From: Bacillota bacterium
Lineage (GTDB): Bacteria > Bacillota > UBA4882 > UBA8346
Direction of reading: 5' to 3'
Assembly: GCA_029776205.1 (NCBI GenBank)
Contig: JAKOTQ010000107.1
Location: 20,035 to 52,034 of the forward strand
Length of the DNA stretch: 32,000 nt
Below are positions 1,690 through 30,625 of this stretch, in pieces. The notes below the pieces were generated by a model. The model was not told the origin of the DNA. It made no database searches and worked only from the letters and a program-made list of their open reading frames with translations. How positions within the stretch are numbered: position 1 is the first letter of the stretch; the number at the start of each line of letters is the position of its first letter. A program made the position numbers and the translations under genes.

Positions 1690-3132
1690 ATGTCTTACCG
1701 GCTTATTTTGCATTATTTCGGAAATATTCTGATTTTACTTGCATTGATTTTGTGGATTCCGCTGGCCTTTACTTTGCTGGACGGCAGAGATACCTTTGCC
1801 TTTTTTTCGGCCATCATTATTACAGCTATCGTTGGATTGGCACTGCGGACATTTAAACCGGAAGGTAAGTTTGGGCGGCGCGAGGGGTTTATCATTGTCG
1901 GTATCGGATGGATGATCTTAGTGGCCTTCGGAGCTTTGCCCTTATATTTCTCTGGTTCCGTACCAACCTATACGGATGCCTATTTTGAGATTATGTCGGG
2001 CTTTACAACCAGTGGAGCGACGGTGATTGCCGATGTTGAAGTATTAGGGCGCGGGATTTTATTTTGGCGAAGTTTTACGCCTTGGTTAGGTGGCATGGGG
2101 ATTATTTTACTGTCGCTGGCTGTGTTTTCAATGATGGGAATTGGGGGCGGTGCTTCTTAATTTCAGGCGGAGGTTCCGAGTTTAACCCATGAGAAAATTC
2201 TTCCCCGAATCAAAGATACCGCCTTTGTACTATGGCTGATTTATACTTGTATTACGTTGATTGGGGTAATTGCGCTGTGGCTGGCGGGGATGCCGGTTTT
2301 TGACAGTATTATTCATGCTATGGGCTCGATGGGAACCGGAGGATTATCTTCCAGAAATCAGGGGATTGCTGCATATGATAATGCGGCTATAGAGATCATT
2401 CTCGCGGTGTTTATGATTATATCCAGTTTAAATTTCTCTCTGTATTTTCGCGTTTATCAAAGGCGAAATTTAAATGCGCTTTTTAAAGATGCAGAGGCGA
2501 AAGGATTTTTGATCATTATTACTACAGCGGCTGTGTTAATGACGGCGTCTCTCTATTTTACCTTAAAACTTCCCCTGGGCCAGGCCTTAAGGCATGCTGT
2601 TTTTCAGGCGGTTTCGCTCTGCAGTACCACCTGCTATGCCACAACCGATTATGCCGCATGGCCGGCTTTCGCTCAGGCGATTTTGTTTATTCTGATGTTT
2701 ATCGGAGGATGTACCGGTTCGGCAGGCGGAGCATTGAAAGTCGGACGGATTATTACATTATTTAAATACATGGGTAAACAGATATTGAAGGTGGCTCAAC
2801 CCCGCTTGATGATCCAACCCAAATTGGGGGATACGCCCATCACCGATATGGTGGTTCATCAGGTATTGGCATATTTCTTCATTTATATCTTTTTGTTTGT
2901 GGTTGGAGGGCTGATTCTCGTTGGTACCGGCCTGGATTTGATATCCGGGTTTAGTGCAGCCGCTGCGGCTATCGGCAATGTCGGGAATGGTTTGGGACAG
3001 GTCGGGCCCTTGGAAAACTATAGTGCGCTACATCCTTTAGCGAAGTGGACCATGACCTTTTTGATGTTAACCGGAAGGTTGGAAATTATGACTATTCTCG
3101 TTATGCTTTATCCCGGCTTTTGGAAGAAATAA
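1690..3132 (+). pseudogene. trkH: TrkH/KtrB-family potassium uptake membrane subunit interrupted by one in-frame TAA
   Basis: ORFs 1690-2160 and 2257-3132 share one frame. Codons 2161-2256 have no stop and continue the family sequence (WLGGMGIILL...GIGGGAS*FQAEVPS...PRIKDTAFVLWLIY). The only lesion is TAA at 2158-2160. Confidence 0.85.
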
Positions 3133-3243
3133 TCATGCAACTGCTGTTCATTTTATCATCAAAACCTTTGTTGCAATTGTGGGCATGAGGATCTATAATC
3201 TTTTTATATTTAAAAAGGTTTCGCTTAGCAGGAGGATTTTAAC

Positions 3244-4620
3244 TTGAAGATTATCATTGTTGGAGCGGGAAAACTGGGATATGACTTGACCAAAATCTTA
3301 TCTCAAGAGGATCATGAAGTGATTGTCATCGACAAGGATGCGGATGCTCTTAAACCGATCGCAGACAATTTTGACGTGATGATTGTCAATGGCAACGGGG
3401 CCAGTATTAAGATTTTAGAGAAGGTCCAGGCCGAATCCGCCCAAATGGTTTTGGCTGTCACGGACTATGATGAGTTAAATATTATCGCTTGTATGATTGC
3501 AAAACAGTTAGGCGTTCCCATGACTGTCGCCAGGGTGCGTAATCCGGATTATGCTCCGGTGTCGCTGCCGATGATAGGGGCATATCATAATTTTGGAATT
3601 GACCTTTATTTAAATCCCGAATACCTGGCTGCCCAGGAAATTTACAGGTTGATCGAAGTGCCCAATGCCACCTCGGTTGGATATTTTGCCGATGGGAAGC
3701 TGAGCTTGATCTCCCTTAAGATCAGTGAAAATATGGCGATAGCCGGTAAAAGGATTTATGAGTTAAATTTGGATAAAATTACCGTAGTGGCAATTATCCG
3801 CCAAGGGGACGTATTGATACCGAACGGCAGTACCCAGTTACTTCTCAATGATAAAGTTTTTGTGATGGGGAAAACTGCCGGTTTTCATAACTTAAACCCG
3901 TTGATGAAATTGAAAACTCCTCGTTTTAAGCGGATTGTGATCGCCGGCGGTGGATTGATCACCGAATATCTGGTTCAAGAGTTGACTACGAAGCGGAATG
4001 TCCCGGATATTAAAGTTATCGAACCGTCTTTAGAACGATGCCGGGCCTTATCCCGGCAATTGGAAGGCTGTAGTATTATTCATGCCGATCCGACCCGCCT
4101 TGAAATTTTGGAGGAGGAAAATTTGGGAGCGGGAGATATCTTTATTTCTCTCACTGGTTCCGACAACTCCAATCTGGTCGCCTGTATGGTGGCGAAGCAA
4201 TTGCAGGTGTCTCAGATCCTCTGTGAAATTTCCCGGGAAGATTATATTTCGTTGGCAGAAACCATTGGGGTCACGGCGACCGTTACGCCGCGAATGCTTA
4301 CCGTAAGTTCGGTATTGAAGGCTATCAAAAAGAAGAATGTTATTGCAGTAAGCCTTCTGAATACAGGAGAGGCTGAGATTTTGGAACTGGAGGTCGAACC
4401 GGATGCGCCGGCGACCCATTTGCCATTGAAGCATTTGGAGATACCTGTTGGTATCGTGATCGGGGCTGTGCTTCATGACGGGGAAGTGGTGATTCCTCGG
4501 GGAGATACGCGGATCGCCCCGGGGGACCGGGTCATCGTATTTTCCTTAAGAACTATGGCATCATTTGTTGACAAGTTATTCCGCCAAAATGAAACCACTG
4601 GGGAAGATGATGCCCAATAG
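3244..4620 (+). CDS. trkA: Trk system potassium uptake protein TrkA (two RCK/NAD-binding modules)
   Basis: AGGAGG lies 8 nt upstream of the TTG start. The N-terminus MKIIIVGAGKLG is a Rossmann motif, repeated at IVIAGGGLITEY. Length is 458 aa, directly downstream of trkH. Confidence 0.9.
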   Translation: MKIIIVGAGKLGYDLTKILSQEDHEVIVIDKDADALKPIADNFDVMIVNGNGASIKILEKVQAESAQMVLAVTDYDELNIIACMIAKQLGVPMTVARVRNPDYAPVSLPMIGAYHNFGIDLYLNPEYLAAQEIYRLIEVPNATSVGYFADGKLSLISLKISENMAIAGKRIYELNLDKITVVAIIRQGDVLIPNGSTQLLLNDKVFVMGKTAGFHNLNPLMKLKTPRFKRIVIAGGGLITEYLVQELTTKRNVPDIKVIEPSLERCRALSRQLEGCSIIHADPTRLEILEEENLGAGDIFISLTGSDNSNLVACMVAKQLQVSQILCEISREDYISLAETIGVTATVTPRMLTVSSVLKAIKKKNVIAVSLLNTGEAEILELEVEPDAPATHLPLKHLEIPVGIVIGAVLHDGEVVIPRGDTRIAPGDRVIVFSLRTMASFVDKLFRQNETTGEDDAQ

Positions 4621-4634
4621 TCCGCGTCTTCAGG

Positions 4635-6557
4635 TTATTTTGGAATATTTTGGAGAATTTGAACCAATTCTGCGATTTTATAGGGTTTAGTCACTTCAGC
4701 AAAAAAACCGTAAGCTTTGGCATTGGACATGATCGGATCATGGGAATAACCGCTGGAAACGATGGCTTTAACATTGGGATCGAATTGCTTAAGTTCTTCC
4801 AAAGCGGCTTTTCCGCCCATTCCGCCGGGAACGGTCAGATCCATGATTACGGCATCAAAAGGTTTGCCCATTTTTTTATACTCCCGGTATAAAGTAACCG
4901 CTTCTTCTCCGTCTCGGGCCGTCTTGACTTCATAACCGAAGGTTTCCAACATTTCAGAAGTGGCCTGAAGGATTGATTGGACATCATCCATGATCAAAAT
5001 GCGGCCTTTGTCTTTCAAACGTCGTAACCGGGTTGGGTGGCGAGGAGGTATCCTTTCCTCAGCTGCCGGAAGATAAATGTGAAAAGTTGTTCCTTCATTG
5101 ACAACGGATTCGACGGAGATATGTCCCTGGTGTCTGGAGATAATCGACAGGGCCATAAACAAGCCGAGGCCGTTGCCATTTTTTTTGGTGGTATAATAAG
5201 GGTCAAATATTTTATTGAGGTATTCTTTGGGTATGCCAACACCATGGTCTTTGATCTGAATCTTAATATATCGGCCGGGTTTCAGATTGAGCAAGTTTTC
5301 CGGTTGAACGATGGTATTGGTTGCGGTAAATTGAATGGTACCGCCATTGGGCATAGCTTGATCAGCGTTGAGAAAAAGATTGCTGATGACTTGGCTGATC
5401 TGCCCGGCATCAACATTAGCCGGCCAAAGGTCATCGGCAATGACATAACTCCATGTGCTCTTGGAGCCACGGAGCACGAATTCAGCGGTGTCAATTAATA
5501 CTTCTTTCAAGGAGGTGGGTTTGAGAATTGGTGCGCCTCCTCTGGAAAAGGTCAGTAATTGGCGGGTAAGGTTGGATGCGGTAGTTACCGTATCTTCGAT
5601 TCGGGAAAACAGGTTGCTAATATCGTTGCCCCGGGCTAGTTTTAACTGTGCCAGCTGGACATTGGATAAAATACTGGCCAGAAAGTTATTGAAATCGTGG
5701 GCGATTCCTCCGGCCAGATTGCCTAAGACTTCATATTGCTGCATTCTTTCAAAATCTTGCTTCATTCGCTCGGACACATCGATAAAGACGATGACTCCGG
5801 CGATGATTTGACCGGAAACGTCCCGAATGGGAGCGGAATTGGCTTCGATCACGGTATAAGAACCATCGTGGCATTGAATATGGATGATTTCATCCCGGAC
5901 CGTTTCTTCATGGAATATGGAACGGTACAAAGGCCATTCTTCAGCTGAATACGGTGTACCGTCCACATGGAAACCTTTGAGTTCTTTGAAACTGGTGATG
6001 GGCTCTTTCCAAATCTCCTGGCTCATTCGGTTGCTGAGGATAATTTCTCCCGACGGGGCCGTGCCAATGACAACACCGAAAGGCAATTGATCAAGGACTG
6101 CTCTTAAAAAAGCTTCCTGCTGTTGGGTTAAGTTCATGGCAGCTTCCAGGGCATGGCTGGATTGAACTTCGGCAGTGGTTTCCTTTAGATAAAGAATGAG
6201 CCCGATGACTTGGTCGTTCGCATTTTTCACCGGTGATAATGTCCAGTTCCAATAGGTGGTTCCCCGCCAAGGCTCATGGTAGTAGATGAGAGGTTTGGCG
6301 CGGTAGGTTATGGCTTTGCCGCTTTCTCTGGTTTGGATAAACAATTGTTCATAATCGTTATCCGGAAAAATTTCGAAGTGATTTCGTCCGAGGAGTTTTT
6401 CTTTGGGGTAACCGGAGCCTAGAGCATAGGCTTCATTAACATAGATAAATCTGAAGTCTCGGTCAAGAAAAGCGATTTGTAAATCGGATTGGTTTAAAAT
6501 GGTCTCCAGGATGGAAATGCCCCATTGGTCTTCATAAGTCTTGAAAAAATCCTTCAC
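4635..6557 (-). CDS. hybrid sensor histidine kinase (PAS domains, HisKA, HATPase_c, C-terminal receiver)
   Basis: GTG start with GGAGGA 5 nt upstream. H-box GGIAHDFNNFL, N-box NLFLNADQAM, G-boxes DHGVGIP and GNGLGL. The C-terminal receiver shows ILIMDD...VIMDLTVPGG...VTKP. Confidence 0.9.
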   Translation of the reverse strand: MKDFFKTYEDQWGISILETILNQSDLQIAFLDRDFRFIYVNEAYALGSGYPKEKLLGRNHFEIFPDNDYEQLFIQTRESGKAITYRAKPLIYYHEPWRGTTYWNWTLSPVKNANDQVIGLILYLKETTAEVQSSHALEAAMNLTQQQEAFLRAVLDQLPFGVVIGTAPSGEIILSNRMSQEIWKEPITSFKELKGFHVDGTPYSAEEWPLYRSIFHEETVRDEIIHIQCHDGSYTVIEANSAPIRDVSGQIIAGVIVFIDVSERMKQDFERMQQYEVLGNLAGGIAHDFNNFLASILSNVQLAQLKLARGNDISNLFSRIEDTVTTASNLTRQLLTFSRGGAPILKPTSLKEVLIDTAEFVLRGSKSTWSYVIADDLWPANVDAGQISQVISNLFLNADQAMPNGGTIQFTATNTIVQPENLLNLKPGRYIKIQIKDHGVGIPKEYLNKIFDPYYTTKKNGNGLGLFMALSIISRHQGHISVESVVNEGTTFHIYLPAAEERIPPRHPTRLRRLKDKGRILIMDDVQSILQATSEMLETFGYEVKTARDGEEAVTLYREYKKMGKPFDAVIMDLTVPGGMGGKAALEELKQFDPNVKAIVSSGYSHDPIMSNAKAYGFFAEVTKPYKIAELVQILQNIPK

Positions 6558-8471: not shown

Positions 8472-8499
8472 TTTACTTTTAGGCAAAGCTTGATATAAT
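8472..8499 (+). promoter_or_regulatory. sigma-A type promoter with extended -10 for the T-box leader
   Basis: TTTACT (8472-8477), 16 nt spacer, TGaTATAAT (8491-8499). It sits about 30 nt upstream of the first T-box helix. Confidence 0.5.
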
Positions 8500-8530
8500 A
8501 AATGGTAATTAATGTTACTATAGTTTGACC

Positions 8531-8838
8531 GCGATGACAGAGGATAGTAAACCAGATCGCTTTTTGTACAGAGAACCCCGGGCGCTGAGAAGGGGTAAAA
8601 AAGAACTGGTTGAACAGGCTCTTGAGCTTTGCACCGAGACTATTCGGGAGAAATTCTCAATGGTTTAGGCTGTAACGGGTGCGCCCGTTAACGCGCCAGA
8701 GTATACGTATTTCTATGTTTGTTTGTGGAAATACCGTACTTGTTGAGGCTGATACTGTCAAGTGTCGGTAAATTGGGGTGGCACCACGGGATTAAAGCTC
8801 TCGTCCCCAGGATTATATCCTGGAGACGGGAGCTTTTT
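8531..8838 (+). promoter_or_regulatory. T-box riboswitch leader (transcription attenuation); specifier read as CAG (Gln)
   Basis: K-turn GCGATGA/TGAGC, AGTA plus GAA S-turn, distal AGAGA and GCTGAGA. F-box CCGTTA near 8686. T-box sequence AAATTGGGGTGGCACCACGGG at 8770-8790. Antiterminator GGGG[TGGCACC]ACGGGA...TCTCGTCCCC competes with a 16-bp terminator at 8796-8834 followed by T5. Confidence 0.9.
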
Positions 8839-8947
8839 ATATGTTTAAAAATACGGTACCCCTTTGAATGTGGGAAAGATTGGCGTTATAAAGGCGGCGT
8901 TTGAAATCAACAGAAAAGGATAATGACGAATATGGGAGGATCTATTC

Positions 8948-10966
8948 ATGAATGACTTTGATGGAAAAGAAAACAATGTTTTGCATGTTTATGAAAGCAG
9001 GCCTCAATTTCCCAAGCGGGCAGTGATTACCGGCGGGATGCCCTATGGGATTAAAGACCTTCATCTTGGGCATATTGGCGGTGTGTTTGTTCATGCGGAC
9101 ACGTTTGCCCGTTTTTTAAGAGATCGAATCGGTAAAGAAAATGTGATCTTTATATCGGGGACGGATTGTTATGGCTCGCCAATCGTGGAAAGCCATCGGC
9201 AGTTGGTGGAGAAGGGGGAGTTCGACGGCACTCTCGATGATTTGGTCCGGTATTATCATGAACGCCAAAAAGAAGTATTGGAAGCATATTGCATTAGCCT
9301 CGATTTTTATGGGGCGTCAGCCATTGGACGTGCTGCCGAGATTCACCGGCATGTCTCCGCGGATATTATCCGGAAATTATATCAGAACGGTTTTCTGACG
9401 AAGTTGACCACTTCCCAGTTTTTCGATAGTGAGCACGGAGTATTTTTAAACGGGCGGCAAGTGGTGGGGCGGTGCCCGATAGCTGGTTGCTCGTCGGAAC
9501 GGGGTTATGCGGATGAGTGTTCTCTGGGGCATCAATATATGCCGGCTGATTTGATTAATCCCGTCAGTACCTTGTCGGGAAAGAAACCCGAGATGAGAGA
9601 GGTGACTAACTGGTATTTTAAACTGGATCAATTTCACGATCGTCTGGTGGAGTGGGTTGAATCCCTCAAGCAATCGCCGGATAGCCGGAATTTTGTGATT
9701 CGAAGTATTCAGGAGTTTTTAGAGCCGCCGGTTATTCATGTTAAACGGGAGCAGATGGATATTTTACAAACCTTGCAGACCCAACTTCCCCAATTTACGC
9801 TGTACGATGAAGCCAACAAATCGTCGGTAATTATGATCTTTGATAACGTTGCAGAGCGGGAGAAAGCCTGTGCCATTCTTACTGAACACAAAATCCGTTA
9901 TCGTACCGGGAAAACCTTGGTTCCGTTCAGACTGACCGGAAATATCGAATGGGGCATTCCGGCGCCTGTTATTGAAGGATTGGCGGATTTAACAGTTTGG
10001 GTTTGGCCCGAATCTCTTTGGGCCCCGATCTCATTTACCAAGACTTGTCTTGAACTCCGATACAGGGATCCGGAATCTTGGAAAGATTGGTGGTGCTCAA
10101 AAGAGGCTCAGGTTTATCAATTTATCGGAGAAGATAACGTGTATTTCTACGGGCCTGTTGAGATGTCGTTGTGGATGGCTTTACAATCCGGTTCGCCTTC
10201 GGTCGATCCGCCGGAGGGGGAAATACAGCTGCCCAAGCTCATTGTGAACAATCATATTCTCTTTCTTAATAAGAAGGCAAGTAGCAGCGGAGCTGTAAAA
10301 CCGCCGACTGCAAAAGAGCTGCTTGAATACTATACGCCGGAGCAGCTGAGAGCTCATTTTCTTGGGTTGGGGCTTGGGATTAAAAGTGTAGGATTCCAAC
10401 CTAAACCTTTCAATCCCAGAGCCAAAGAGACAGACAATGACCCTGTACTTAAAGAAGGAAACCTTTTAACCAATGTCTTCAACCGGGCGGTTCGTTCCTG
10501 TTTTTATACTGCTCAGAAATACTATGATGGAATAATTCCGGTGGGAGATATCAGTAAAAACGTTTTGAAGGAGTCGCGGGAGGCCATTCTTGAATACGAA
10601 AAACTGATGGCCCAATTTAACTTTCACTTAGTGATGAATTTGTTGGATACCTATATCCGGAGTATCAACAAAGACTGGGCCAAAAATATGAAAGAAGCGG
10701 AGGAAAGCCAAAACGAAGACCTCCGGCGGCAAGTGCTGATCGATACATTCCACCGGGTTCGGACGGCTCTCGTTCTTATGCATCCCATTGCTCCTTCCGG
10801 GACGGAGATGGTCCGGGAATATTTAAGAGTAGGTGAGGCCATTTGGAGCTGGGAACGAATCTTTGAGCCTATTTATCACTTTATGGAGAACCCGGAAACC
10901 CACAAACTAAAATTCCTTGAACCAAGAGTAGATTTCTTTAAAAAACATCCCAGCCAATTTCTTTAA
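8948..10966 (+). CDS. metG: class I aminoacyl-tRNA synthetase of the methionyl-tRNA synthetase (MetG) family, divergent paralogue-like
   Basis: GGGAGGA lies 7 nt upstream of the ATG. HIGH motif is HLGH (9062-9073). MetRS-like segments: GTDCYGSPI, CP...GYADEC...PADLINPVSTLSGKKPEMREVTNWYFKL, WGIPAP, FIGEDNVYFY, NVFNR and KDWAK. The KMSKS position reads KASSS (10274-10288). Confidence 0.8.
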   Translation: MNDFDGKENNVLHVYESRPQFPKRAVITGGMPYGIKDLHLGHIGGVFVHADTFARFLRDRIGKENVIFISGTDCYGSPIVESHRQLVEKGEFDGTLDDLVRYYHERQKEVLEAYCISLDFYGASAIGRAAEIHRHVSADIIRKLYQNGFLTKLTTSQFFDSEHGVFLNGRQVVGRCPIAGCSSERGYADECSLGHQYMPADLINPVSTLSGKKPEMREVTNWYFKLDQFHDRLVEWVESLKQSPDSRNFVIRSIQEFLEPPVIHVKREQMDILQTLQTQLPQFTLYDEANKSSVIMIFDNVAEREKACAILTEHKIRYRTGKTLVPFRLTGNIEWGIPAPVIEGLADLTVWVWPESLWAPISFTKTCLELRYRDPESWKDWWCSKEAQVYQFIGEDNVYFYGPVEMSLWMALQSGSPSVDPPEGEIQLPKLIVNNHILFLNKKASSSGAVKPPTAKELLEYYTPEQLRAHFLGLGLGIKSVGFQPKPFNPRAKETDNDPVLKEGNLLTNVFNRAVRSCFYTAQKYYDGIIPVGDISKNVLKESREAILEYEKLMAQFNFHLVMNLLDTYIRSINKDWAKNMKEAEESQNEDLRRQVLIDTFHRVRTALVLMHPIAPSGTEMVREYLRVGEAIWSWERIFEPIYHFMENPETHKLKFLEPRVDFFKKHPSQFL

Positions 10967-10969
10967 ATG

Positions 10970-11002
10970 GAAGAAAGGATATCCATAGGATATCCTTTCT
11001 TC
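10970..11002. terminator. bidirectional terminator between convergent genes
   Basis: 15-bp perfect stem GAAGAAAGGATATCC / GGATATCCTTTCTTC with loop ATA. T-rich sequence lies downstream and A-rich sequence upstream. Confidence 0.8.
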
Positions 11003-11005
11003 ATT

Positions 11006-12085
11006 TTAATACAGTATTTCACGGGCATGTTTAAGGATTTGGCGGACCGGAAGTTGATTGGGACAGCGGGATTCGCATAATCCACACGAAGTACAGTTTT
11101 TCAGTTTATAGCGAACATCCCATTGGATTTCATTAAATTGGTTTTTGGCGCTTTCAATGTTTAAGAATTTGTAGAGGTTATAATAGCCCAATATGCCGCC
11201 GACCTCCAGCTTTTGAGGGCAGGGGAGGCAATAGCCGCAACCGGTACAGCGGGGCTCCGAAGATCCGATAATTTGATTGGCCTCTTCCAGGATGGCTTCG
11301 GGGGACATTGGATTTTGGCGGGATGTTTCTTCGATCCATTTGGCATAGTCGACTTCAGCTTCGGAAGTAAACCCGATCAGAAGGTGGACATTATCCAAGG
11401 CCATCAGGTAGCGCAAAGCCAATTCTTTAAGACGTTCATTGCTGGCAAGAAAACCGCCGCCCAGCGGATTCATGGCGATCACTTTGATACCGTGTTCACT
11501 GGCATATTTGACGGCCTCCATCCGGGTTAGATTTGTGATGTTCAAGGGCAATGTGACCGTTTCAAAATGGCCGGATTTGAGATAGTTGATAATGGTATTG
11601 GAATCAGCGTGGGTAGTAATGCCCAGATGCCGGACGCGTCCGGCTGCTTTCTCCTTTAAAAATCCTTCATACCATCCTCCGGGTTTAAACGCTTCCTCGT
11701 ATTGTTCCATGGTATGACAAACCCACAAATGGTAATAGTCAACTTGAGAGAGGCCTAACCGGTCCAGGGATTGTTGAAAGACTTTGGCAAAGTCTTCAGC
11801 AGTCCGCACGCCGAAGCCTTTTTCCTGTTCGAATTTTTCGCCTACTTTCATTCCACCGTTTCCGGTGCCGCATTTGATGGAGACCAAGGCCCGTTCCCGG
11901 TAATCTCCGGCCTTAAGAGCTTCACCCACCCAGGCTTCTGAGTTTTCGGTCGCACTTTGCAGCCGATATAAGGGTGCAGTATCTAAATAATTAAATCCGT
12001 AATCGATGGCTTTCCGAATAAGCTGTACGGCAGTTTCACGGTTGGGAAGCCGCATAGTACCGATGATTATCTTATTTAATTCCAT
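11006..12085 (-). CDS. aldo/keto reductase fused to a C-terminal 4Fe-4S ferredoxin-type domain
   Basis: AKR N-terminus IIGTMRLP...AIDYGFNYLDTAPLY. C-terminal Cys clusters CTGCGYCLPCP and CTSCGLCESRCP. Confidence 0.85.
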   Translation of the reverse strand: MELNKIIIGTMRLPNRETAVQLIRKAIDYGFNYLDTAPLYRLQSATENSEAWVGEALKAGDYRERALVSIKCGTGNGGMKVGEKFEQEKGFGVRTAEDFAKVFQQSLDRLGLSQVDYYHLWVCHTMEQYEEAFKPGGWYEGFLKEKAAGRVRHLGITTHADSNTIINYLKSGHFETVTLPLNITNLTRMEAVKYASEHGIKVIAMNPLGGGFLASNERLKELALRYLMALDNVHLLIGFTSEAEVDYAKWIEETSRQNPMSPEAILEEANQIIGSSEPRCTGCGYCLPCPQKLEVGGILGYYNLYKFLNIESAKNQFNEIQWDVRYKLKNCTSCGLCESRCPNQLPVRQILKHAREILY

Positions 12086-14033: not shown

Positions 14034-14390
14034 TTATTCCAAACTGATATGGGCTTTCCAGTTGAGGCCGTTGTTGTTATCCCAGTTATCGGCATTGTCT
14101 TTAAAGCAGAATTCAACTTCCGGTGAATCCGGTTGAATTCTAGCCGTGAAGCTACCATTGTAGTTTCTTTCCATTTTAACTGTTGTGGTATTGGCCCAAT
14201 CATGGGTCCCATAATGGAGATAGACTTCCTTAGCACCGGCGTTTTTAAGTAGCCCTTGATAATACACATGAAGTTGTTGGGTGTCTTGGGTTACAAAGGC
14301 TTCAATGGATACGGGCTGATCGGGATCGCCCCCAAATTCATGACGAGCAGTGAGATTTGAATTGATCGCCCATTTTAATAGATTAATCAT
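14034..14390 (-). CDS. small single-domain carbohydrate-binding-module-like protein (CBM25/CBM53-like)
   Basis: AAGGAGG lies 8 nt upstream of the ATG. The pattern YQGLLKNAGAKEVYLHYGTHDW...FCFKDNADNWDNNNGLNW matches the starch-binding CBM signature (W ... F.F.D ... WDNN.G.N). Confidence 0.6.
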   Translation of the reverse strand: MINLLKWAINSNLTARHEFGGDPDQPVSIEAFVTQDTQQLHVYYQGLLKNAGAKEVYLHYGTHDWANTTTVKMERNYNGSFTARIQPDSPEVEFCFKDNADNWDNNNGLNWKAHISLE

Positions 14391-14548: not shown

Positions 14549-14587
14549 ATAGGAAATATCTCACTTGTTATGAGGTGGTTTACAACA

Positions 14588-16303
14588 ATGGAGGATAGCG
14601 CTAAGATGGAAGATCTTAAAAATAAAGTTGACGAATGTGAAACGTCGGCGCCAGTTCCTGATTTGCCGTCTAATTTTATACAAGATATAATCAACGAAGA
14701 CCTTAAAAATGGCAAAAATGACGGAAGGGTCCATACCCGGTTCCCTCCCGAACCTAACGGATATTTACATATCGGACATGCGAAATCCATTTGCTTGAAT
14801 TTTGGCATCGCCGCTAAATACGGCGGATTATGCAATCTCCGGTTTGATGACACCAATCCTTCCAAAGAAGATACGGAATATGTAGAATCCATTATGGAAG
14901 ATGTCCGTTGGCTGGGTTTTGATTGGGACGACCGTCTTTTTTATGCTTCCAGTTACTATGAACAGCTATATCAATATGCTGTCGATCTGATCAAAGCGGG
15001 TAAAGCCTATGTATGTGAGTTGACTCCCCAGCAAATCAAGGAATATCGGGGGACCCTGACAGAACCTGGAAAAGAAAGCCCCTATCGGAACCGGTCGGTT
15101 GAAGAAAACTTGGACTTATTTGCACGGATGCGGGCCGGTGAGTTTCCGGACGGCTCCATGACTCTGCGGGCGAAGATCGATATGAGCTCTCCCAATATCA
15201 ATATGCGAGATCCGGTGCTCTATCGGATCATGCGAGTTCATCATCACCGTACCGGCGATGAATGGTGTATTTATCCGATGTATGATTATGCCCATCCTAT
15301 TTCCGATGCCTTAGAAGGGATTACTCATTCCATTTGTACATTGGAATTTGAAGATCACCGGCCGCTTTACAACTGGGTCATTGAAAACTTGGATTTACCG
15401 AGCAAACCTCGGCAAATTGAGTTTGCTCGTCTGAACATGACCCATACGGTGATGAGCAAACGGAAATTGTTGGACCTGGTGAAACGAAATATCGTCTCCG
15501 GCTGGGATGATCCGCGGATGCCCACCATTTCCGGTTTGCGTCGCCGGGGCTATACTCCTGAGTCCATTCGGGCCTTTTGTGAAAAAATCGGTGTGGCTAA
15601 AGCCAACAGCACAGTAGAGATTGCCCTTTTGGAACATTGTCTCCGGGAAGATCTTAACGCTCGGGCGCCCCGGGTTATGGCGGTGTTAAATCCTTTAAAA
15701 GTGGTTATTGACAACTATCCCGATGATTTGGTGGAAGAGTTTGAAGCTGAAATCAACCCGGAAAAACCGGAAATGGGGACCAGAAAAGTTCCTTTTTCCA
15801 AGGTGATTTATATTGAGCAGGATGATTTCACTGAAAATCCGCCAAAAGGATATTTCCGGTTAGCCCCGGGTCGGGAAATCCGCTTAAAGCATGCTTATTA
15901 TATTACCTGTCAGTCGGTGGTGAAGGACGAAAAGACCGGCGAGATCCTTGAGGTTCATTGCACCTATGATCCGGAAAGCCGCGGGGGATGGACACAAGAC
16001 GGCCGTAAGGTTAAAGGAACCTCCCATTGGGTATCGGCAGCTCATGCCATTCCTGCCGAAGTCCGGCTCTATGATCATCTGTTTTTAGATGAATACCCGG
16101 GCGAAGATGCGACGGTCAATCCTAATTCTGTGGTTTACCTGACCCATTGTATGGTAGAGCCCAGTTTGGCAGCAGCGAAGCCCGGAGACCGCTTCCAGTT
16201 TTTACGGCAAGGATATTTCTGTGTGGACCCGGATTCCACGGATAAGCGCTTAGTGTTCAACCGGACAGTTGGCTTGAAGGATTCCTGGGCTAAAAAATCG
16301 TAA
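14588..16303 (+). CDS. glnS: glutamine--tRNA ligase (GlnRS)
   Basis: [26 protein letters not shown]...[10 protein letters not shown] is near-identical to canonical GlnRS. KMSKS-type loop is VMSKRKL. GAGGTGG lies 8 nt upstream of ATG 14588, so the tracked start 14570 probably overextends. Confidence 0.95.
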
Positions 16304-16414: not shown

Positions 16415-16753
16415 ATGCCTCGGAAGAAAACGGAAGAGGTCGTTGACGGTATTTTTATGGAACCGGTACCGATCACCTTAGGAGATGAAGTGAGGATCCG
16501 ATATAAAGGATTATTGGCCCAATCGGGCGCCAACAAGGTTTATCTGCATATGGGTTATGGAGCCAATGAATGGAGAAATATCGAAGACATTCCTATGCGT
16601 AAACTGAGGGATGGAAGTTGGTCAGCTACGGTCCAAGTCAGTGATCCATCCAGTTTGAATTTTTGCTTCCGGGATGATGCCGAAAATTGGGACAATAACT
16701 ACGGACGAAATTGGACTTATCAGGTGCATGACGGAGATCAACTTTCACATTAA
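16415..16753 (+). CDS. small CBM25/CBM53-like carbohydrate-binding-module protein, paralogue of 14034-14390
   Basis: GGGAGG lies 7 nt upstream of the ATG. YKGLLAQSGANKVYLHMGYGANEW...FCFRDDAENWDNNYGRNW aligns along its length with the other copy. Confidence 0.6.
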   Translation: MPRKKTEEVVDGIFMEPVPITLGDEVRIRYKGLLAQSGANKVYLHMGYGANEWRNIEDIPMRKLRDGSWSATVQVSDPSSLNFCFRDDAENWDNNYGRNWTYQVHDGDQLSH

Positions 16754-21683: not shown

Positions 21684-21746
21684 AAAAGCGGGTGTCCGTA
21701 CCGGTTTCCAAATTCTACGTTTTAAAGTTTCGTGGGAGGTGTAATT

Positions 21747-22955
21747 ATGGGAGAACGGATTTATTTCGACCATGCGGCGACAACCGGGGTTGACCCGAAA
21801 GTATTGGAGGCGATGATTCCGTATTTCAGTCAAACTTTCGGCAATCCGTCGAGCATTCACTCTTTTGGGAGGGAAACCCGGAAGGCTATTGAGGAAGCCC
21901 GTCAGATTGTCGCAGCGGAAATTGGGGCAGCTGCTCCCAATGAAATATATTTTACAGGTAGCGGTTCTGAAAGCGACAATATGGCGTTGCGCGGGGTCGC
22001 CGAGGCTTATCGGGATAAAGGACGACATATTATCACATCATCGATTGAACATCATGCGGTACTGGATACCTGCCATTATTTGGAGAAAAACGGTTATAAG
22101 GTCACATATTTGCCGGTTGATTCCGATGGATTGGTTCATCCGGAGACTGTACTGGACGCGTTAACACCAGAGACCATTTTAGTCTCCATTATGCATGCCA
22201 ATAATGAAATTGGAACCATTCAACCCATTGCCGAAATCGGGAAATTACTTAAAGAGCGGAACATTTTGTTCCATACGGATGCGGTTCAAACGGTAGGGAC
22301 GATTCCTGTGAATGTCCAGGATTTAAACGTTGATTTGCTGTCCATGGCCGCTCATAAATTTTATGGGCCAAAAGGTACCGGTGCTTTATATATCCGACGC
22401 GGGGTCAAGGTAAATCCGTTGATTTACGGAGGTGCTCAGGAACGGAACCGGCGGGCCGGGACGGAAAACATCGCTGGAATCGTCGGACTGGCCAAAGCAT
22501 TGCAACTGGCCAACAGCCATTTGGAAGAGAACCGGGCCCGAATAACGGAACTTAGGGATTATCTGATTGACCGGGTGTTGTCAGAGATGGATTACGTCCG
22601 GTTAAATGGGCATCGCACCAAGCGGCTGCCGGGAAATGCCAATTTCAGTTTCGATTTCATTGAAGGTGAGTCCCTCCTTCTCAATCTTGATTTAAAAGGG
22701 ATTGCAGCGTCCAGCGGTTCAGCATGCACTTCCGGATCATTGGAACCGTCCCATGTTCTACTGGGTATTGGATTGTGCCATGAAACAGCCCATGGTTCTC
22801 TCCGGGTTTCCTTGGGGAAAGGGAACACCCGTGAGGAAGTAGATTACTTTATGAGCGTTTTGCCGGAGATCGTGAATAAACTCCGGGCTATGTCGCCTTT
22901 ATATCATGCAGAAACTGAACGAAAGGAGTGCGCGTCATGTACACGGAAAAGGTAA
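21747..22955 (+). CDS. iscS: cysteine desulfurase (NifS/IscS type)
   Basis: GGGAGGTG lies 5 nt upstream of ATG 21747. Motifs: YFDHAATT, SSIEHHAV, PLP-Lys in SMAAHKFYGPKG, active-site loop SSGSACTS. Confidence 0.9.
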   Translation: MGERIYFDHAATTGVDPKVLEAMIPYFSQTFGNPSSIHSFGRETRKAIEEARQIVAAEIGAAAPNEIYFTGSGSESDNMALRGVAEAYRDKGRHIITSSIEHHAVLDTCHYLEKNGYKVTYLPVDSDGLVHPETVLDALTPETILVSIMHANNEIGTIQPIAEIGKLLKERNILFHTDAVQTVGTIPVNVQDLNVDLLSMAAHKFYGPKGTGALYIRRGVKVNPLIYGGAQERNRRAGTENIAGIVGLAKALQLANSHLEENRARITELRDYLIDRVLSEMDYVRLNGHRTKRLPGNANFSFDFIEGESLLLNLDLKGIAASSGSACTSGSLEPSHVLLGIGLCHETAHGSLRVSLGKGNTREEVDYFMSVLPEIVNKLRAMSPLYHAETERKECASCTRKR

Positions 22956-23311
22956 TGGACCATTTTCAAAATCCCCGTAATGTCGGTGAACTTAGCGATG
23001 CCAACGGCATTGGTGAAGTGGGCAATGCTACCTGCGGGGATATTATGAAGATATATATCAAAGTTGAAGATAACCGGATTGTGGATATTAAATTTAAAAC
23101 CTTTGGTTGCGGTGCTGCTATCGCCACCAGCAGCATGGTAACGGAGATGGTGAAGGGCAAGACGATAGAGGAGGCCCTCCAAGTTACCAACAAAGCGGTA
23201 GCTGAGGCATTGGATGGCCTTCCTCCTGCAAAAATGCATTGTTCAAATTTGGCAGCTGACGCATTGCATAAGGCCATCGAAAATTATCGGGCAGGTCAGA
23301 ACGGCGGATGA
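22937..23311 (+). CDS. iscU: Fe-S cluster assembly scaffold protein (IscU/NifU N-terminal type)
   Basis: AAGGAG lies 8 nt upstream of ATG 22937. Motifs: VMDHFQNPRNVG, GNATCGD, FKTFGCGAAIA, KMHCSNLA. Confidence 0.9.
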   Translation: MYTEKVMDHFQNPRNVGELSDANGIGEVGNATCGDIMKIYIKVEDNRIVDIKFKTFGCGAAIATSSMVTEMVKGKTIEEALQVTNKAVAEALDGLPPAKMHCSNLAADALHKAIENYRAGQNGG

Positions 23312-24393
23312 AGCAGCGGGTCATTATGGCGATGAGCGGAGGGGTCGACAGCTCGGTGGCAGCAGCCTTACTCTTGGAAGAGGGATATGAAGTGATCGGC
23401 GTCACGATGCAGCTCTGGGATAATGATCTTCCCTATGGCACTGAGGTGGAAGGGGGTTGCTGTTCCCTGAGTGCAGTGGATGATGCACGGGCAGTGGCTA
23501 ACACCTTGGGTATTCCCTATTATGTGCTGAACATGCATGCTCCATTTCGAGAGAAAGTGATTGACTATTTTGTTGATGAGTACCTGCAGGGGCGGACCCC
23601 CAATCCCTGTATTGTCTGTAATAAAAGCGTCAAGTTCGATCTTTTGCTGGAGAAAGCAGCTTCGCTGGATGGAGATTTTCTTGCCACCGGTCATTATGTC
23701 CGTCGCAGCTTTGATGCTGAAAGAGGGCGATTTATCCTTCGTCGAGGCGTCGATCTTTCGAAAGATCAAAGTTATGTGTTGTATGGAATGACCCAACCTC
23801 AGTTAGCAAAGACTTTATTTCCGCTGGGTGGTTATACCAAAGCCGCCATTCGGGAGAAAGCGGCTGAATTGGGTTTGAGAGTGGCCTCCAAACCGGACAG
23901 CCAGGAGATCTGTTTTGTTCCGGACCAGGATTATGGCCGCTTTATTGAGGATTATCAGCCCGGGTCTGTCCAGCCCGGCAATATTGTGGATGAGAGTGGC
24001 AAAGTCTTGGGACGCCATCGCGGGATCATTCATTATACCATCGGGCAGCGGAAAGGGCTGGGGATTGCCGCTCCGGAACCCTTGTTTGTCAAGGAGATTC
24101 GTCCGGATACCAATGAAATCGTGGTGGGGCCGGCTGAATCCGTTTTCTTTAAAGGCCTGTTAGCCAATGAGCTCAATTGGATCCTTTGGGATGATTTAAA
24201 CGGGGAATTGGAAGCCCAAGCCAAGATTCGTTACAGTGCCCAGCCTGTACCGGCACTAATAAAACCGGAACCTGGCGGCCGGGTCCGTGTAGAATTTGAA
24301 ACGCCTCAACGGGCAGTTACTCCGGGACAGGCTGTGGTCTTTTACCAACAGGATCTGGTTTTGGGTGGAGGAACCATCGTGCAGGCGATATAA
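23308..24393 (+). CDS. mnmA: tRNA 2-thiouridine(34) synthase MnmA
   Basis: PP-loop AMSGGVDSS, NPCIVCN, ATGHY, DQSYVL. The start overlaps the iscU stop (ATGA). Confidence 0.95.
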   Translation: MKQRVIMAMSGGVDSSVAAALLLEEGYEVIGVTMQLWDNDLPYGTEVEGGCCSLSAVDDARAVANTLGIPYYVLNMHAPFREKVIDYFVDEYLQGRTPNPCIVCNKSVKFDLLLEKAASLDGDFLATGHYVRRSFDAERGRFILRRGVDLSKDQSYVLYGMTQPQLAKTLFPLGGYTKAAIREKAAELGLRVASKPDSQEICFVPDQDYGRFIEDYQPGSVQPGNIVDESGKVLGRHRGIIHYTIGQRKGLGIAAPEPLFVKEIRPDTNEIVVGPAESVFFKGLLANELNWILWDDLNGELEAQAKIRYSAQPVPALIKPEPGGRVRVEFETPQRAVTPGQAVVFYQQDLVLGGGTIVQAI

Positions 24394-28160: not shown

Positions 28161-29684
28161 GTGGGTGAAGGACAAGTTATTACTGTCTATTCCGATACTA
28201 AAATCGAACAACTTGTCAAAGAGATGATGAACAATCCGGCTGATCAGGTTATTTTGCGAGTTGCACCGGATTGTAAATTATTGAATAACGAGGTCAATCT
28301 TCGGCTGGTCAAATTTTATGCTGAAGAAGTCGATAAAGAGTTAATTATCAACGCCAGTGATGAGGCATTGATTGCGGCAGCACAGCGGGTGGGATTGTCG
28401 ACGATTCGGGAACGGGAAGTAACTGAAGCCGATTTTCGTCCGGAAGAATCACCGGCTCCAAAGTCAAAACGGCCGTCGGCCGGGGGAGGTTCGAAGTCCC
28501 AGCCGGTTCGCGTCTATCGTTATCATGGTGGACTGATACCTGCCTTATTGGTTGCTTTTTTCACTTTCATCGTCGCGGTATGGTGGTTTTTGCAACCCAA
28601 AGCCACAGTGATTGTTTATCCCAAAGAGCAATTTTTAAATTTTCGGACCGAGGTTTTATCAGGTTTGGAATATCAGGACCGGGATTTGGCTGAAGGCCGT
28701 ATTCCAGCGAAGCTGTTTGAGAAAAACTTTACCTTGACGGTTCAAAGTAAAGCCACAGGTTTTAAAGTGATCGGAGTCACCCAGGCAACCGGAAAGGTGA
28801 CTGTGATTAACAGTACTGCGCAACCGTTGACCATTCCGAAAGGCACGGTATTTGTCGGTAAGGACGGTATTCAGTTCACTTCCGATAAGGCCGTTGTGGT
28901 TCCTAAGAAAGTCACCAAGTATCAGTATGGTTTGCCAGTCGGTGAAGAGTACGGCCGGGTGGAGGTTCCGATTACTGCTGTGGCCAAAGGAAGCGGAGGC
29001 AATCTGCCGCCCAAGGCGATTAACCGGATTGAAGGAAGTTTACAACGGCATCTGACGGTGATCAATTTGACTCCTACAGCAGGTGGAACCGATCAAAAGG
29101 TTGCTGTTGTCACTCTTGATGATGTCAAACGGGGCGAAGCTGAAGCCAGAGAACAAATGATGATTTCCGGTACTGAAGAAGCCGGGCGGCTTGTAGATAA
29201 AAACTATTTATATCTGCCGGAACTAACGGAACTGGAGTTGATCCGAGTTACCAGTTCACCGGAGATTGGAGAAACAGCAGAGACGGTCACCACCAAGTTG
29301 GAATACCGGGTTTCAACGTTAGCACCGTCGCAGGAAGGGATCAGGAAGTATTTGAAGTTACAGTTGGACAAGAATATGCCTGCAAATTTTGAGGCTAAAA
29401 ATAATGATGTCAGTTTGGTCAGTGCCAATGCTGTCACTGCTTCCGGCAAAATCCAATTGGAGTTGGTCGGCCGGGGAACCATTCGTGGTATTCTCAATCA
29501 GGCAAAGATCAAAGAATTAGTCAAGGGTAAAACCATTACCGAAGCCAAAGCGGCGTTGGCAACTCTGAATGAAGTGGCTGATTGCAAATTTGACCTTCGG
29601 GATGGCCGTTCTAAGCTACCGTCGTTTGGTTTTCAGATCCGCACCTTATTTCCGGCTGGTTCCCGGGAGCCAGTTCGACCATGA
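28161..29684 (+). CDS. membrane-anchored baseplate J/gp47-like domain protein
   Basis: The GTG start lies 6 nt after the previous stop. There is a single TM helix (LIPALLVAFFTFIVAVWWFL). GKVTVINSTAQPLTIPKGTVFVGKDGIQFTSD...VPITAVAKGSGGNLP resembles Baseplate_J. Confidence 0.55.
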   Translation: MGEGQVITVYSDTKIEQLVKEMMNNPADQVILRVAPDCKLLNNEVNLRLVKFYAEEVDKELIINASDEALIAAAQRVGLSTIREREVTEADFRPEESPAPKSKRPSAGGGSKSQPVRVYRYHGGLIPALLVAFFTFIVAVWWFLQPKATVIVYPKEQFLNFRTEVLSGLEYQDRDLAEGRIPAKLFEKNFTLTVQSKATGFKVIGVTQATGKVTVINSTAQPLTIPKGTVFVGKDGIQFTSDKAVVVPKKVTKYQYGLPVGEEYGRVEVPITAVAKGSGGNLPPKAINRIEGSLQRHLTVINLTPTAGGTDQKVAVVTLDDVKRGEAEAREQMMISGTEEAGRLVDKNYLYLPELTELELIRVTSSPEIGETAETVTTKLEYRVSTLAPSQEGIRKYLKLQLDKNMPANFEAKNNDVSLVSANAVTASGKIQLELVGRGTIRGILNQAKIKELVKGKTITEAKAALATLNEVADCKFDLRDGRSKLPSFGFQIRTLFPAGSREPVRP

Positions 29685-30625
29685 AGAGAGTACGGCTGGG
29701 TTTAACCGATTTAATGGTATCTCCGCTTTGCATGGGAACGCTGACGGTAGGTCCTACGCAGAAAAATCTGCCCCAGCAGGAAGCTGCGGATTTGGTGATT
29801 CGAGCGTATGAGTTGGGAATCAATTTTTTCGATTCGGCGGAGATCTATGGGACCTATCCCATCCTGGGATTGGCGTTGCAAACTTATCCGGAACTGATCG
29901 TGACCGGAAAATCTTATGCCGTCACAGCGGATGAGATGCGAAAAAGCATTGAGAAAGCCCGGAAGGAGTTAAACCGGGATTATATTGATATTTTTTGTCT
30001 TCATGAAGTGGAAAACAGTGCTGCATTGAAAGGCCATCGCGGGGCTTTGGATTATCTTTATGAAGCGCGCCAACGGGGAATTGTACGGGCGGTCGGAATC
30101 TCCACCCATACCGTTGCCGGGGTTCGGGCCGGTGCCAATGAACCGGGGATCGACGTGATACATCCCTTAATTAACCGGGCTGGAATCGGTATCAAAGACG
30201 GAACGGTTGATGATATGATTGCAGCGATTCGAACTGCCCGGGAATTCGGAAAAGGGATATATGCGATGAAAGTATTGGGCGGTGGCCATTTATACCGGGA
30301 GGCTGTTGAGTCGATCCGGTTTGTTCGTCAACTGGGTATTGTAGATTCCATAGCCATCGGCATGCAATCTGAAGCGGAAATTCGGTTCAATCGGATGTTA
30401 GTGGAGGGAGAGACTCCGCCGCCGGACCTTGGGGACGAGGTGGCAGGAACGGCCCGGGCGTTACAGATAGAAGATTGGTGTTGCGGTTGTGGCCGTTGTG
30501 TGGCCCGATGCGGATTTGAAGCGCTACATCTGGAAAACGGCGTAGCTAAGGTTGATCGGGCCCGTTGTATGATGTGCGGATATTGTGCTCGGGTTTGCCC
30601 GGAGTTTTGCTTGAAAATTGTCTAA
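29681..30625 (+). CDS. aldo/keto reductase fused to a C-terminal 4Fe-4S ferredoxin-type domain (second copy)
   Basis: The start overlaps the upstream stop (ATGA). AKR N-terminus LGLTDLMVSPLCMGT...GINFFDSAEIYG. Cys clusters CCGCGRCVARC and CMMCGYCARVCP. Confidence 0.85.
   Translation: MKRVRLGLTDLMVSPLCMGTLTVGPTQKNLPQQEAADLVIRAYELGINFFDSAEIYGTYPILGLALQTYPELIVTGKSYAVTADEMRKSIEKARKELNRDYIDIFCLHEVENSAALKGHRGALDYLYEARQRGIVRAVGISTHTVAGVRAGANEPGIDVIHPLINRAGIGIKDGTVDDMIAAIRTAREFGKGIYAMKVLGGGHLYREAVESIRFVRQLGIVDSIAIGMQSEAEIRFNRMLVEGETPPPDLGDEVAGTARALQIEDWCCGCGRCVARCGFEALHLENGVAKVDRARCMMCGYCARVCPEFCLKIV

Follow-up and report, generated by a model that had tools for sequence, protein, structure and literature searches.

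Two routes to Gln-tRNA-Gln are known. In one of them glutamine is attached directly by glutaminyl-tRNA synthetase (GlnRS), a eukaryote-derived offshoot of glutamyl-tRNA synthetase (GluRS), and in the other the tRNA is mischarged by GluRS and the product is then amidated by GatCAB or GatDE. Second synthetases that are induced through a T-box when charging fails are also known, namely those encoded by thrZ and tyrZ of Bacillus subtilis and by the class I lysK of Bacillus cereus. The lysK enzyme belongs to a structural class different from that of the housekeeping lysyl-tRNA synthetase (LysRS). The gene described here lies at positions 8948–10966 (+) of a 32,000-nucleotide stretch of DNA from a Bacillota bacterium (GenBank assembly GCA_029776205.1, contig JAKOTQ010000107.1, positions 20,035–52,034), and this whole stretch is called the window below. 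The gene encodes a class I synthetase-like protein of 672 amino acids (aa) that derives from methionyl-tRNA synthetase (MetRS) and belongs to a family that we call the KASSS family. The reading that we favour, tentatively and at a little less than an even chance, is that the protein charges tRNA-Gln, most likely with glutamine, and is a non-canonical GlnRS.

The product of the open reading frame (ORF) 8948–10966 has the MetRS fold. It matches the Pfam family tRNA-synt_1g (2.6e-61), and its closest solved relative is the MetRS of Pyrococcus abyssi (1rqg, 1.1e-49), which aligns in two blocks covering residues 24–261 and 329–664 of the query, with the gap between them corresponding to an insert. 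When an AlphaFold 2 (AF2) model of the protein was compared by Foldseek, the top 30 matches were all MetRS. This full-length model was built from 14 close homologues and serves for the fold assignment only, as its predicted local distance difference test (pLDDT) score is 62.4 and its active-site loops lie below 50. No match to the GlxRS group was obtained in the Pfam or curated-model searches. The protein also falls under the cut-off of all six curated MetRS models (NCBIfam NF001100, TIGR00398 and related models), with 230.3 bits against a cut-off of 587 and 176.3 bits against 336.35. Because the scores lie far under the cut-offs and the counterparts of Arg233, Tyr260, His301 and the PW motif of the Escherichia coli enzyme are lost, the protein is not a standard MetRS.

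The expression of the gene appears to be governed by uncharged glutamine tRNA. A preliminary description of the window had mentioned a glutamine-type T-box, and the leader ahead of the gene (8525–8811, +) passes the Rfam threshold: the RF00230 model is matched over its full length at 102.8 bits (gathering score 93; E = 1.3e-23). Stem I (8531–8628, +) contains the GA/K-turn, the specifier loop and the distal AGAGA and GNUGNGA elements, and its helices in the covariance model (CM) alignment are those of the minimum free energy (MFE) fold. The specifier loop is 7 by 7 in the MFE fold, with GAUAGUA on its 5′ side and GAACAGG on its 3′ side. In the structurally characterised glyQS leader of B. subtilis the loop reads GAA-GGC-A. 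Since the loop GAA-CAG-G has the same geometry, the specifier codon is read as CAG (Gln; 8615–8617, +), with the S-turn GAA (8612–8614) before it and the purine G8618 after it. The T-box sequence GGGGUGGCACCACGG (8775–8789, +) includes a UGGC bulge (8779–8782), the expected partner of which is the 3′ end GCCA of a tRNA whose discriminator is G73. It is followed by an intrinsic terminator (8794–8841, +), consisting of a hairpin at 8794–8836 and a U tract, which competes with the antiterminator; the folding energy of the region 8765–8845 is −33.7 kcal/mol. About 25 nt upstream of the leader there is a promoter-like site (8472–8499, +) with the hexamers TTTACT and TATAAT, a 16-nt spacer and an extended −10 TG, identified by its consensus match only (10 of 12 hexamer positions). 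A ribosome-binding site GGGAGG (8934–8939, +) can be read 8 nt ahead of the ATG, and a terminator-like hairpin of 15 bp (10970–11002, +) directly follows the stop codon.

The glutamine specifier is a general feature of those family leaders that were found. In a context sample of 80 family loci from GTDB, 11 have a T-box immediately ahead of the family gene, and all nine of these leaders that were re-scored lie above the Rfam gathering score. Their specifier loops read GAA-CAG-G in four loci, as in the window, and GAA-A-CAA-G in seven. Together with 11 leaders from metagenomes, all of which have CAA, there are 23 family leaders (5 CAG and 7 CAA from the window and GTDB), each reading a glutamine codon; none has an AUG specifier. 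Both loop types can also be read in the frames AAC (Asn) and ACA (Thr). Either reading would disrupt the GAA S-turn or the geometry of codon plus purine, and an identical loop precedes true glnS genes; for these reasons both frames were rejected.

The specifier assignment was calibrated by one scan of metagenome contigs from the Joint Genome Institute with the pattern GAAACARG-N5-RAGC-N(113-143)-GGGTGGNACCRCG. The scan gave 47 loci. The first gene after the leader belongs to the family in 11 of them, is glnS-like in 14 and encodes a major facilitator superfamily (MFS) transporter in 18, while 4 loci are cut off. The 14 glnS-type proteins are 55–60% identical to the GlnRS encoded in the window, and two of them score 679 and 696 bits on TIGR00440 (cut-off 425.8). 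Twelve of the metagenome loci, drawn from all three classes, were re-scanned, and 10 exceed the Rfam gathering score. In two glnS leaders (L109 and L116) the CAA occupies the same CM columns as the codon of the family leaders. Leader identity is about 73–76% within the family class and within the glnS class and about 59–65% between the classes; the family, glnS and MFS leaders thus appear to be three lineages with one T-box specificity. The last nucleotide of the UGGN bulge varies between C and U in glnS leaders and family leaders alike, which would fit a single tRNA with G73. In a survey of Firmicutes, T-boxes upstream of tRNA ligase genes always had the specifier of the amino acid of the ligase (PMC2494555).

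Two further T-box arrangements were seen in passing. The 18 MFS loci with a CAA T-box (L083, L086–L088, L093, L095, L097, L099–L101, L105, L106, L110, L111, L113, L115, L117 and L126) encode DHA3-like, TIGR00900-like proteins of about 405 aa related to EntS and Mef, which could import glutamine or export an agent that blocks the charging of tRNA-Gln. In locus L002 a T-box with a leucine specifier (CUC; 2052–2296) precedes an 843-aa ORF (2352–4883) whose C-terminal 550 aa resemble the acyl-CoA ligase PRK12583. This T-box was considered as an independent calibrator and left unused, as it stands ahead of an acyl-CoA-ligase fusion and not of leuS. The arrangement may be linked to leucine synthesis from isovalerate in anaerobes.

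The window protein has many close relatives. A search of 5.8 billion proteins returned as its best 120 matches full-length proteins throughout, all at least 66% identical, which, where they are named at all, carry the public name "class I tRNA ligase family protein" or the automatic one "methionyl-tRNA synthetase". When GTDB was scanned with a single genome for each species, at least 595 stretches matched, at 56–71% identity. Within Clostridia they occur in Oscillospiraceae, Ruminococcus albus 8, Lachnospiraceae, Ruminiclostridium and Herbinix, and outside Clostridia in Spirochaetales, Acidobacteriota, Sumerlaeota, Anaerolineales and Erysipelotrichia. Among 1.84 billion cluster representatives, a handful of full-length clusters with 37–58% identity is followed by a group at about 30% and then by ordinary MetRS. 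The unusual motifs that had been flagged in the preliminary description are invariant in 14 family members with 66–87% identity and are kept in members with only 37–47% identity, and therefore they do not result from chance. The group at about 30% consists of Bdellovibrionota proteins (Halobacteriovorax, Bacteriovorax, Oligoflexus), which are annotated as MetRS or unnamed and also lie under the curated MetRS cut-offs. The phylogenetic placement that had been suggested as a check was carried out by neighbour joining, and the family, the Bdellovibrionota group and both together are each monophyletic with respect to canonical MetRS in 200 of 200 bootstrap replicates. Judged by these comparisons, the family appears to be distinct and widespread and to have branched off the MetRS lineage. 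No account of it was found in the literature searched, which covered MetRS paralogues, glutamine T-boxes, the NCBI name of the proteins and combinations of MetRS, GlnRS and T-box. In one metagenome-assembled genome (MAG) of Herbinix sp. (L_E1_T20_B_bin.19) two family copies are present on separate contigs (L029 and L032), each with its own CAA T-box, reflecting either a duplication or strain heterogeneity.

To compare residues, the window protein was aligned by MAFFT with E. coli MetRS, eight canonical MetRS, family members with identities as low as 37% and the Bdellovibrionota group; the E. coli sequence used agrees with PDB alignments. All motifs quoted in the preliminary description were found where it had placed them, and apart from the anticodon tryptophan the alignment confirmed its motif correspondences. 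The HIGH motif was correctly reported as intact. It reads HLGH (residues 39–42, 9062–9073) within the segment K-D-L-H-L-G-H (9053–9073, +), which begins with Lys36, three residues before HIGH. This lysine is found only in the window's family, and canonical MetRS and the Bdellovibrionota type have glycine at its place. By analogy with arginyl-tRNA synthetases (ArgRS) that lack KMSKS, Lys36 may stand in for the second lysine of KMSKS, which the family has lost. At the KMSKS site the window protein has KASSS (residues 443–447, 10274–10288, +), with the first lysine (Lys443) and the serines kept and E. coli Lys335 replaced by Ser446; the family form is K(A/I)(S/A)SS. The loss of the second lysine is real, but it is not diagnostic, given KFSTS in P. 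abyssi and K(I/L/F)STS in canonical matches, most of which lack this lysine.

The replacement of DEHG or DAHG by DCYG was likewise found as described (residues 73–76, 9164–9175, +). Asp73 is the counterpart of E. coli Asp52, which binds the alpha-amino group, and His54 has become Tyr75; the family has TD(C/G/S)(Y/F)G at this site, whereas TD(D/E)HG is present elsewhere in the alignment. The altered zinc knuckle (CPIAGC...ADECSLGH, 9473–9532, +) also stands, with CPIAGC at residues 176–181 (9473–9490) and ECSLGH at residues 190–195 (9515–9532). Its fourth cysteine is lost (E. coli Cys161 to Leu), and an invariant His195 follows two residues later. Cys176, Cys181, Cys191 and His195 are all invariant and could form a Cys3His metal site.

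Further changes affect the region around the binding pocket. The stretch RTGKTLVPFRLTGN (9902–9943, +), 14 residues long, is invariant in the family and contains RLTGN where canonical enzymes have I(S/T)RD, so that E. coli Arg233 corresponds to Gly331; R(L/I)(T/S)G(N/D) is the family-specific form. It is followed by the WGIPAP element (9950–9967). The segment WVWPESLWAPISF (9998–10036, +), matching E. coli YVWLDAPIGY, is a remodelled pocket wall with a three-residue insertion and with Phe363 in place of Tyr260. In FIGEDNVYFY (residues 392–401, 10121–10150, +), Lys295 is replaced by glutamate, Ile297 by Asn397 and His301 by Tyr401. The latter two substitutions had been linked, as a speculation, to a substrate switch. 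They hold by alignment and do not serve as evidence for a switch, as asparagine is normal at this site in archaeal-type MetRS (KDN) and tyrosine is common to the Bdellovibrionota proteins. FIGxDNxYFY as a whole is present in that sister clade, but KASSS is not, KMSKS being kept there. In the helical domain, which is complete and has many invariant polar residues in the 14-member alignment, the anticodon-domain helix NVFNRAVR (10472–10495, +) retains Asn512 and Arg516, corresponding to E. coli Asn391 and Arg395 (NVFNR, 10472–10486), as had been noted. The tryptophan that had also been listed as retained, Trp577 in KDWAK (10670–10684), aligns six residues upstream of E. coli Trp461 and is not kept in the family members P0121 and P0132; the canonical PW (Trp461) is absent.

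Taken over the residues of E. coli MetRS that bind and activate methionine, Tyr15 (Tyr33), Asp52 (Asp73) and Trp253 (Trp353) are kept and Leu13 (Met), Arg233 (Gly), Tyr260 (Phe) and His301 (Tyr) are changed. In the E. coli enzyme Arg233 and Lys335 are important for the activation of methionine. The window protein has lost Tyr260 and His301, by which canonical MetRS accommodates the sulfur of methionine, and Trp461, by which it recognises the CAU anticodon. It is plausible that the protein is catalytically competent, as the invariance of HLGH, Asp73, Lys443 and Lys36 suggests; with the complete helical domain, these make up the equipment that adenylation and aminoacylation by a class I enzyme require. 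The loss of Arg233 and Lys335 could mean that activation is tRNA-dependent, as in GlnRS, GluRS and ArgRS, or that other chemistry takes place.

The insert of about 65 aa (residues 260–325, 9725–9922, +) was delimited as a gap in the match to P. abyssi MetRS and by the MAFFT alignment. The segment VIHVKREQ...HKIRYRTGKT (9731–9916) does precede WGIPAP, as the preliminary description had it, but it does not set the family apart, since it is present in KMSKS-bearing Bdellovibrionota relatives. A ferredoxin-like beta-alpha-beta-beta-alpha-beta fold is predicted for it, and with a pLDDT of about 80 it is the best-predicted part of the full AF2 model; modelled alone from 37 sequences of both subfamilies, it reaches 74.7. 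Foldseek found no significant match in the PDB, and only generic ferredoxin-like domains were returned, with PII-like proteins as the best (E = 0.02), followed by ACT, EF-G and RRM-like domains (all at E ≥ 0.02). It is a reasonable guess that the insert contacts the tRNA. In the Bdellovibrionota proteins P0153, P0176, P0190, P0197, P0273, P0336 and P0382, and in L081, the insert carries a conserved LPKHKSRYAPGK motif.

These Bdellovibrionota proteins (P0153 type), which are about 30% identical to the window protein, share several of its peculiarities. They have the insert at the same site, GMPY (A12G, L13M), the wall WPESLxAPxSF (Y260F with three extra residues) and FIGxDNxYFY (Lys295 lost, H301Y), and they lack PW. 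Unlike the window's family, they keep KMSKS, TDDHG, I(S/T)RD and both CxxC knuckles, have no Lys36 and show LNAAFEKP in the anticodon helix. Their annotation is automatic, and their true specificity may differ from the label.

To survey the gene neighbourhood, all ORFs lying up to 6 kb from the family gene were clustered across the 80 GTDB loci. Only two recurrent neighbours are of note, gltX (21 loci) and mnmA (5 loci). The gltX gene, of the bacterial type (about 280–305 bits on TIGR00464, cut-off 290), lies on the same strand as the family gene in all 21, upstream of it in 18 and downstream in 3, mostly with gaps of 20–110 nt. The mnmA gene follows the family gene directly, after 66–70 nt, in three loci and is one gene away in two. 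MnmA produces 2-thiouridine at U34 of tRNA-Glu, tRNA-Gln and tRNA-Lys. No locus combines any two of the T-box, gltX and mnmA contexts, which together account for 37 of the 80 loci; no T-box was found on the gltX-linked operons. No gene for tRNA-Gln, tRNA-Glu or tRNA-Met was detected in the 80 loci, gatCAB was not seen among the recurrent neighbours, and no second MetRS was present within 10 kb of the family gene. The single extra match, in L064 (6188–8593, from a Ruminococcus MAG), is a leucyl-tRNA synthetase gene (leuS) directly upstream of the family gene. The T-box specificity in common with glnS, the gltX operons and the mnmA operons are three independent kinds of context that speak for a role in the metabolism of tRNA-Gln or Glx-tRNA and not in that of methionine. 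The preliminary description had thought a switch of substrate or function conceivable from a polarised pocket combined with the glutamine T-box. Such a switch is backed by the comparative context of T-box, gltX and mnmA, and the pocket argument is not what supports it.

We propose that the gene acts here as a monocistronic unit made up of promoter, T-box leader, ORF and terminator. When tRNA-Gln is fully charged, transcription would end at the leader terminator (8794–8841). When uncharged tRNA-Gln builds up, its anticodon would pair with the CAG specifier (8615–8617) and its free 3′ end with the UGGC bulge (8779–8782), the antiterminator would form and the enzyme would be made. Charged tRNA-Gln would then be obtained by a second, inducible route in addition to that of the constitutive glnS (14570–16303). 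We infer the substrate tRNA-Gln, the attached amino acid and the catalysis with Lys36 from the T-box class and the gene linkage. A wider proposal, more doubtful than the charging of tRNA-Gln itself, is that the family represents a third independent solution for Gln-tRNA-Gln, in which a GlnRS evolved from MetRS and not from GluRS, spread horizontally through Clostridia, Spirochaetota, Acidobacteriota and others, and serves in some genomes as a T-box-inducible backup that is structurally unrelated to canonical GlnRS. Such a backup could, for example, be insensitive to GlnRS inhibitors or tuned to glutamine starvation.

Several observations weigh against a GlnRS function. The genome already encodes a canonical GlnRS and has no gap to fill; the replacement of a missing GlnRS in this genome is ruled out by the canonical glnS 3.6 kb downstream. 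The T-box is present in only 11 of the 80 GTDB loci, and in 43 all three contexts are missing, although both flanks are present in 27 of these. The 21 gltX loci are not independent, as the linkage is partly inherited within Oscillospirales. The loss of Arg233 and Lys335 could mean impaired or different activation. The side-chain pocket (Met31, Tyr33, Trp353, the PESL..AP.SF wall, Asn397, Phe400, Tyr401) is almost as in the Bdellovibrionota proteins, and if that clade is true MetRS, the pocket of the window enzyme may still bind methionine.

The last point bears directly on the view that the protein is still a MetRS of an unusual subtype, the glutamine T-box and the linkages reflecting cross-regulation or a general clustering of aminoacyl-tRNA synthetase (aaRS) genes. 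The MetRS fold, the retained HIGH, Asp73, Tyr33, Trp353 and Asn512...Arg516, the occurrence of KxSxS without the second lysine in true MetRS and a pocket nearly identical to that of a sister clade named methionine--tRNA ligase, which has KMSKS, ITRD and zinc knuckles, all speak for it. We consider it improbable, as all 23 T-boxes have CAG or CAA and none AUG, specifier and ligase having matched in the survey (PMC2494555), the scores are far under the curated cut-offs, the PW (Trp461) needed for the CAU anticodon is absent and Tyr260, His301 and Arg233 are changed. The name of the Bdellovibrionota proteins, moreover, is automatic, and these proteins too fall under the cut-offs and lack PW. The CAG and CAA specifiers and the linkage to gltX and mnmA would fit equally well if the enzyme charged tRNA-Gln with glutamate in the manner of GluRS2 and the Glu-tRNA-Gln were then amidated by GatCAB, and a MetRS-like pocket does bind glutamate in PyrN (Glu-sulfamoyl-adenosine, PDB 9l8v). 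This is slightly easier to credit than a surviving MetRS and unlikely all the same: no conserved arginine or lysine for the gamma-carboxylate is evident in the pocket-lining segments, the 2008 survey of Firmicutes has no T-box on amidotransferase genes, the glutamine T-box type precedes glnS, which encodes the enzyme of the direct pathway, and gatCAB is not among the recurrent neighbours in the 80 loci. A tRNA-dependent amidotransferase as the function of the protein was set aside on geometric grounds, by reasoning only.

The two remaining explanations do without aminoacylation. The protein might adenylate a substrate without charging a tRNA 3′ end, acting either as a tRNA-independent ligase or, by analogy with GluQRS, as a modifier of tRNA-Gln or tRNA-Glu that aids charging. 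MetRS-like domains with HLGH, a KFSTG-type loop and a helical bundle do act without tRNA, and the loss of Arg233 and of the second lysine, the mnmA linkage and the extra ferredoxin-like domain agree with this. Yet Pfam detects neither a cupin domain nor an N-hydroxylase in the ORF or in the flanking genes, hundreds of species carry the family in contexts of a housekeeping type and not in biosynthetic clusters, the helical domain has many invariant polar residues, and the T-box control, with a T-box type in common with glnS, suggests that the enzyme influences how far tRNA-Gln is charged. We regard this explanation as unlikely, although it is the most credible of the alternatives. The least probable is a pseudo-synthetase without catalytic activity that would bind tRNA-Gln or associate with GluRS, in a role such as conferring specificity or aiding delivery. 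The tight operon coupling to gltX and the loss of Arg233 and Lys335, with their importance for methionine activation in the E. coli enzyme, would suit it, whereas HLGH, Asp73, Lys443, the pocket wall and FIGxDNxYFY are invariant down to 37% identity. Such invariance is typical of a ligand-binding catalytic site, and a family-specific Lys36 lies beside HIGH.

In the rest of the window, the canonical glnS (14570–16303, +) scores 772 bits on TIGR00440 against the cut-off of 425.8, and no T-box was found ahead of it, even at E values up to 1. A small CBM53/CBM25-like ORF lies on each side of it (14034–14390, −, and 16415–16753, +), the two being oppositely oriented and 41% identical to each other; no inverted repeat was found at the DNA level at these ORFs. 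An mnmA gene for tRNA 2-thiouridine-34 synthase (23308–24393, +) lies about 12 kb downstream of the family gene and offers weak context. It is preceded by a gene for an IscS-like cysteine desulfurase (21732–22955, +), in the region 11–13 kb downstream of the family gene. The neighbours of the family gene itself encode a SipL-like protein, an ORF product without match and an aldo-keto reductase with Fe-S domains. The reductase gene (11006–12085, −) converges on the family gene, and the two have the terminator hairpin in common; a second aldo/keto reductase with a C-terminal 4Fe-4S dicluster domain is encoded at 29681–30625 (+). Upstream of trkA (3244–4620), TrkH is split into two ORFs (1690–2160 and 2257–3132, +; Pfam TrkH positions 3–122 and 174–489), possibly by a frameshift or as a pseudogene.

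Whatever the amino acid, at least 595 species encode a highly conserved, unannotated enzyme related to translation. The automatic labels, "methionyl-tRNA synthetase" or none, affect metabolic reconstruction, the prediction of the aaRS-inhibitor spectrum of gut Clostridia and T-box-guided annotation. If the charging of tRNA-Gln by a MetRS-derived enzyme is true, it would be a new type of synthetase, a find of the same kind as that of class I LysRS, and it would mean that specificity for amino acid and tRNA can pass from one class I subclass to a distant one. If the enzyme is a GlnRS, it would be a third evolutionary origin of Gln-tRNA-Gln synthesis.

With the MetRS of P. abyssi (1rqg) and E. 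coli (MetG) the window protein shares the Rossmann core, the connective peptide (CP) domain with its knuckle, the KMSKS-loop domain and the helical anticodon bundle, and with archaeal and type-2 MetRS it shares HLGH, Asp52/Asp73, Tyr15/Tyr33, Trp253/Trp353, the K-x-S-x-S loop and N-x3-R. Like the KDN of archaeal-type MetRS, it has asparagine at the site of Ile297. It differs from MetRS in the 65-aa insert, A12G and L13M, DCYG instead of DEHG, RLTGN instead of ITRD, Y260F with the three extra wall residues, K295E, H301Y, the missing PW (W461), the Cys3His-type knuckle, Lys36 and scores of about 40% of the curated cut-offs; its gene is under a glutamine and not a methionine T-box. The hydrazine synthetases (PyrN, Spb40; PDB 9l8v) are a precedent for MetRS-like domains switched to other amino acids (Glu, Gly, Ala, Ser, Thr, Tyr), and PyrN adenylates with a KFSTG loop from which the second lysine is absent. 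HLGH and a KMSKS loop without the second lysine are common to these domains and the window protein, to which the PyrN-type domain shows marginal similarity (E ~7e-6). Hydrazine synthetases are, however, fused to or paired with cupins, work free of tRNA and belong to secondary-metabolite clusters, and neither a cupin nor a hydroxylase is present at the window gene. Canonical GlnRS (glnS, TIGR00440) resembles the window's family in being a class I enzyme with a glutamine-specifier T-box and the same proposed tRNA, but it combines the GlxRS core with beta-barrel anticodon domains and belongs to a lineage unrelated to the MetRS core and helical bundle of the window protein. For thrZ, tyrZ and lysK it is established that the second enzyme is active, whereas in the window the specifier suggests that both enzymes serve the same tRNA. 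The layout is nevertheless that of thrS/thrZ and lysS/lysK: a housekeeping gene, here glnS, without a T-box, and a T-box on the second gene only.

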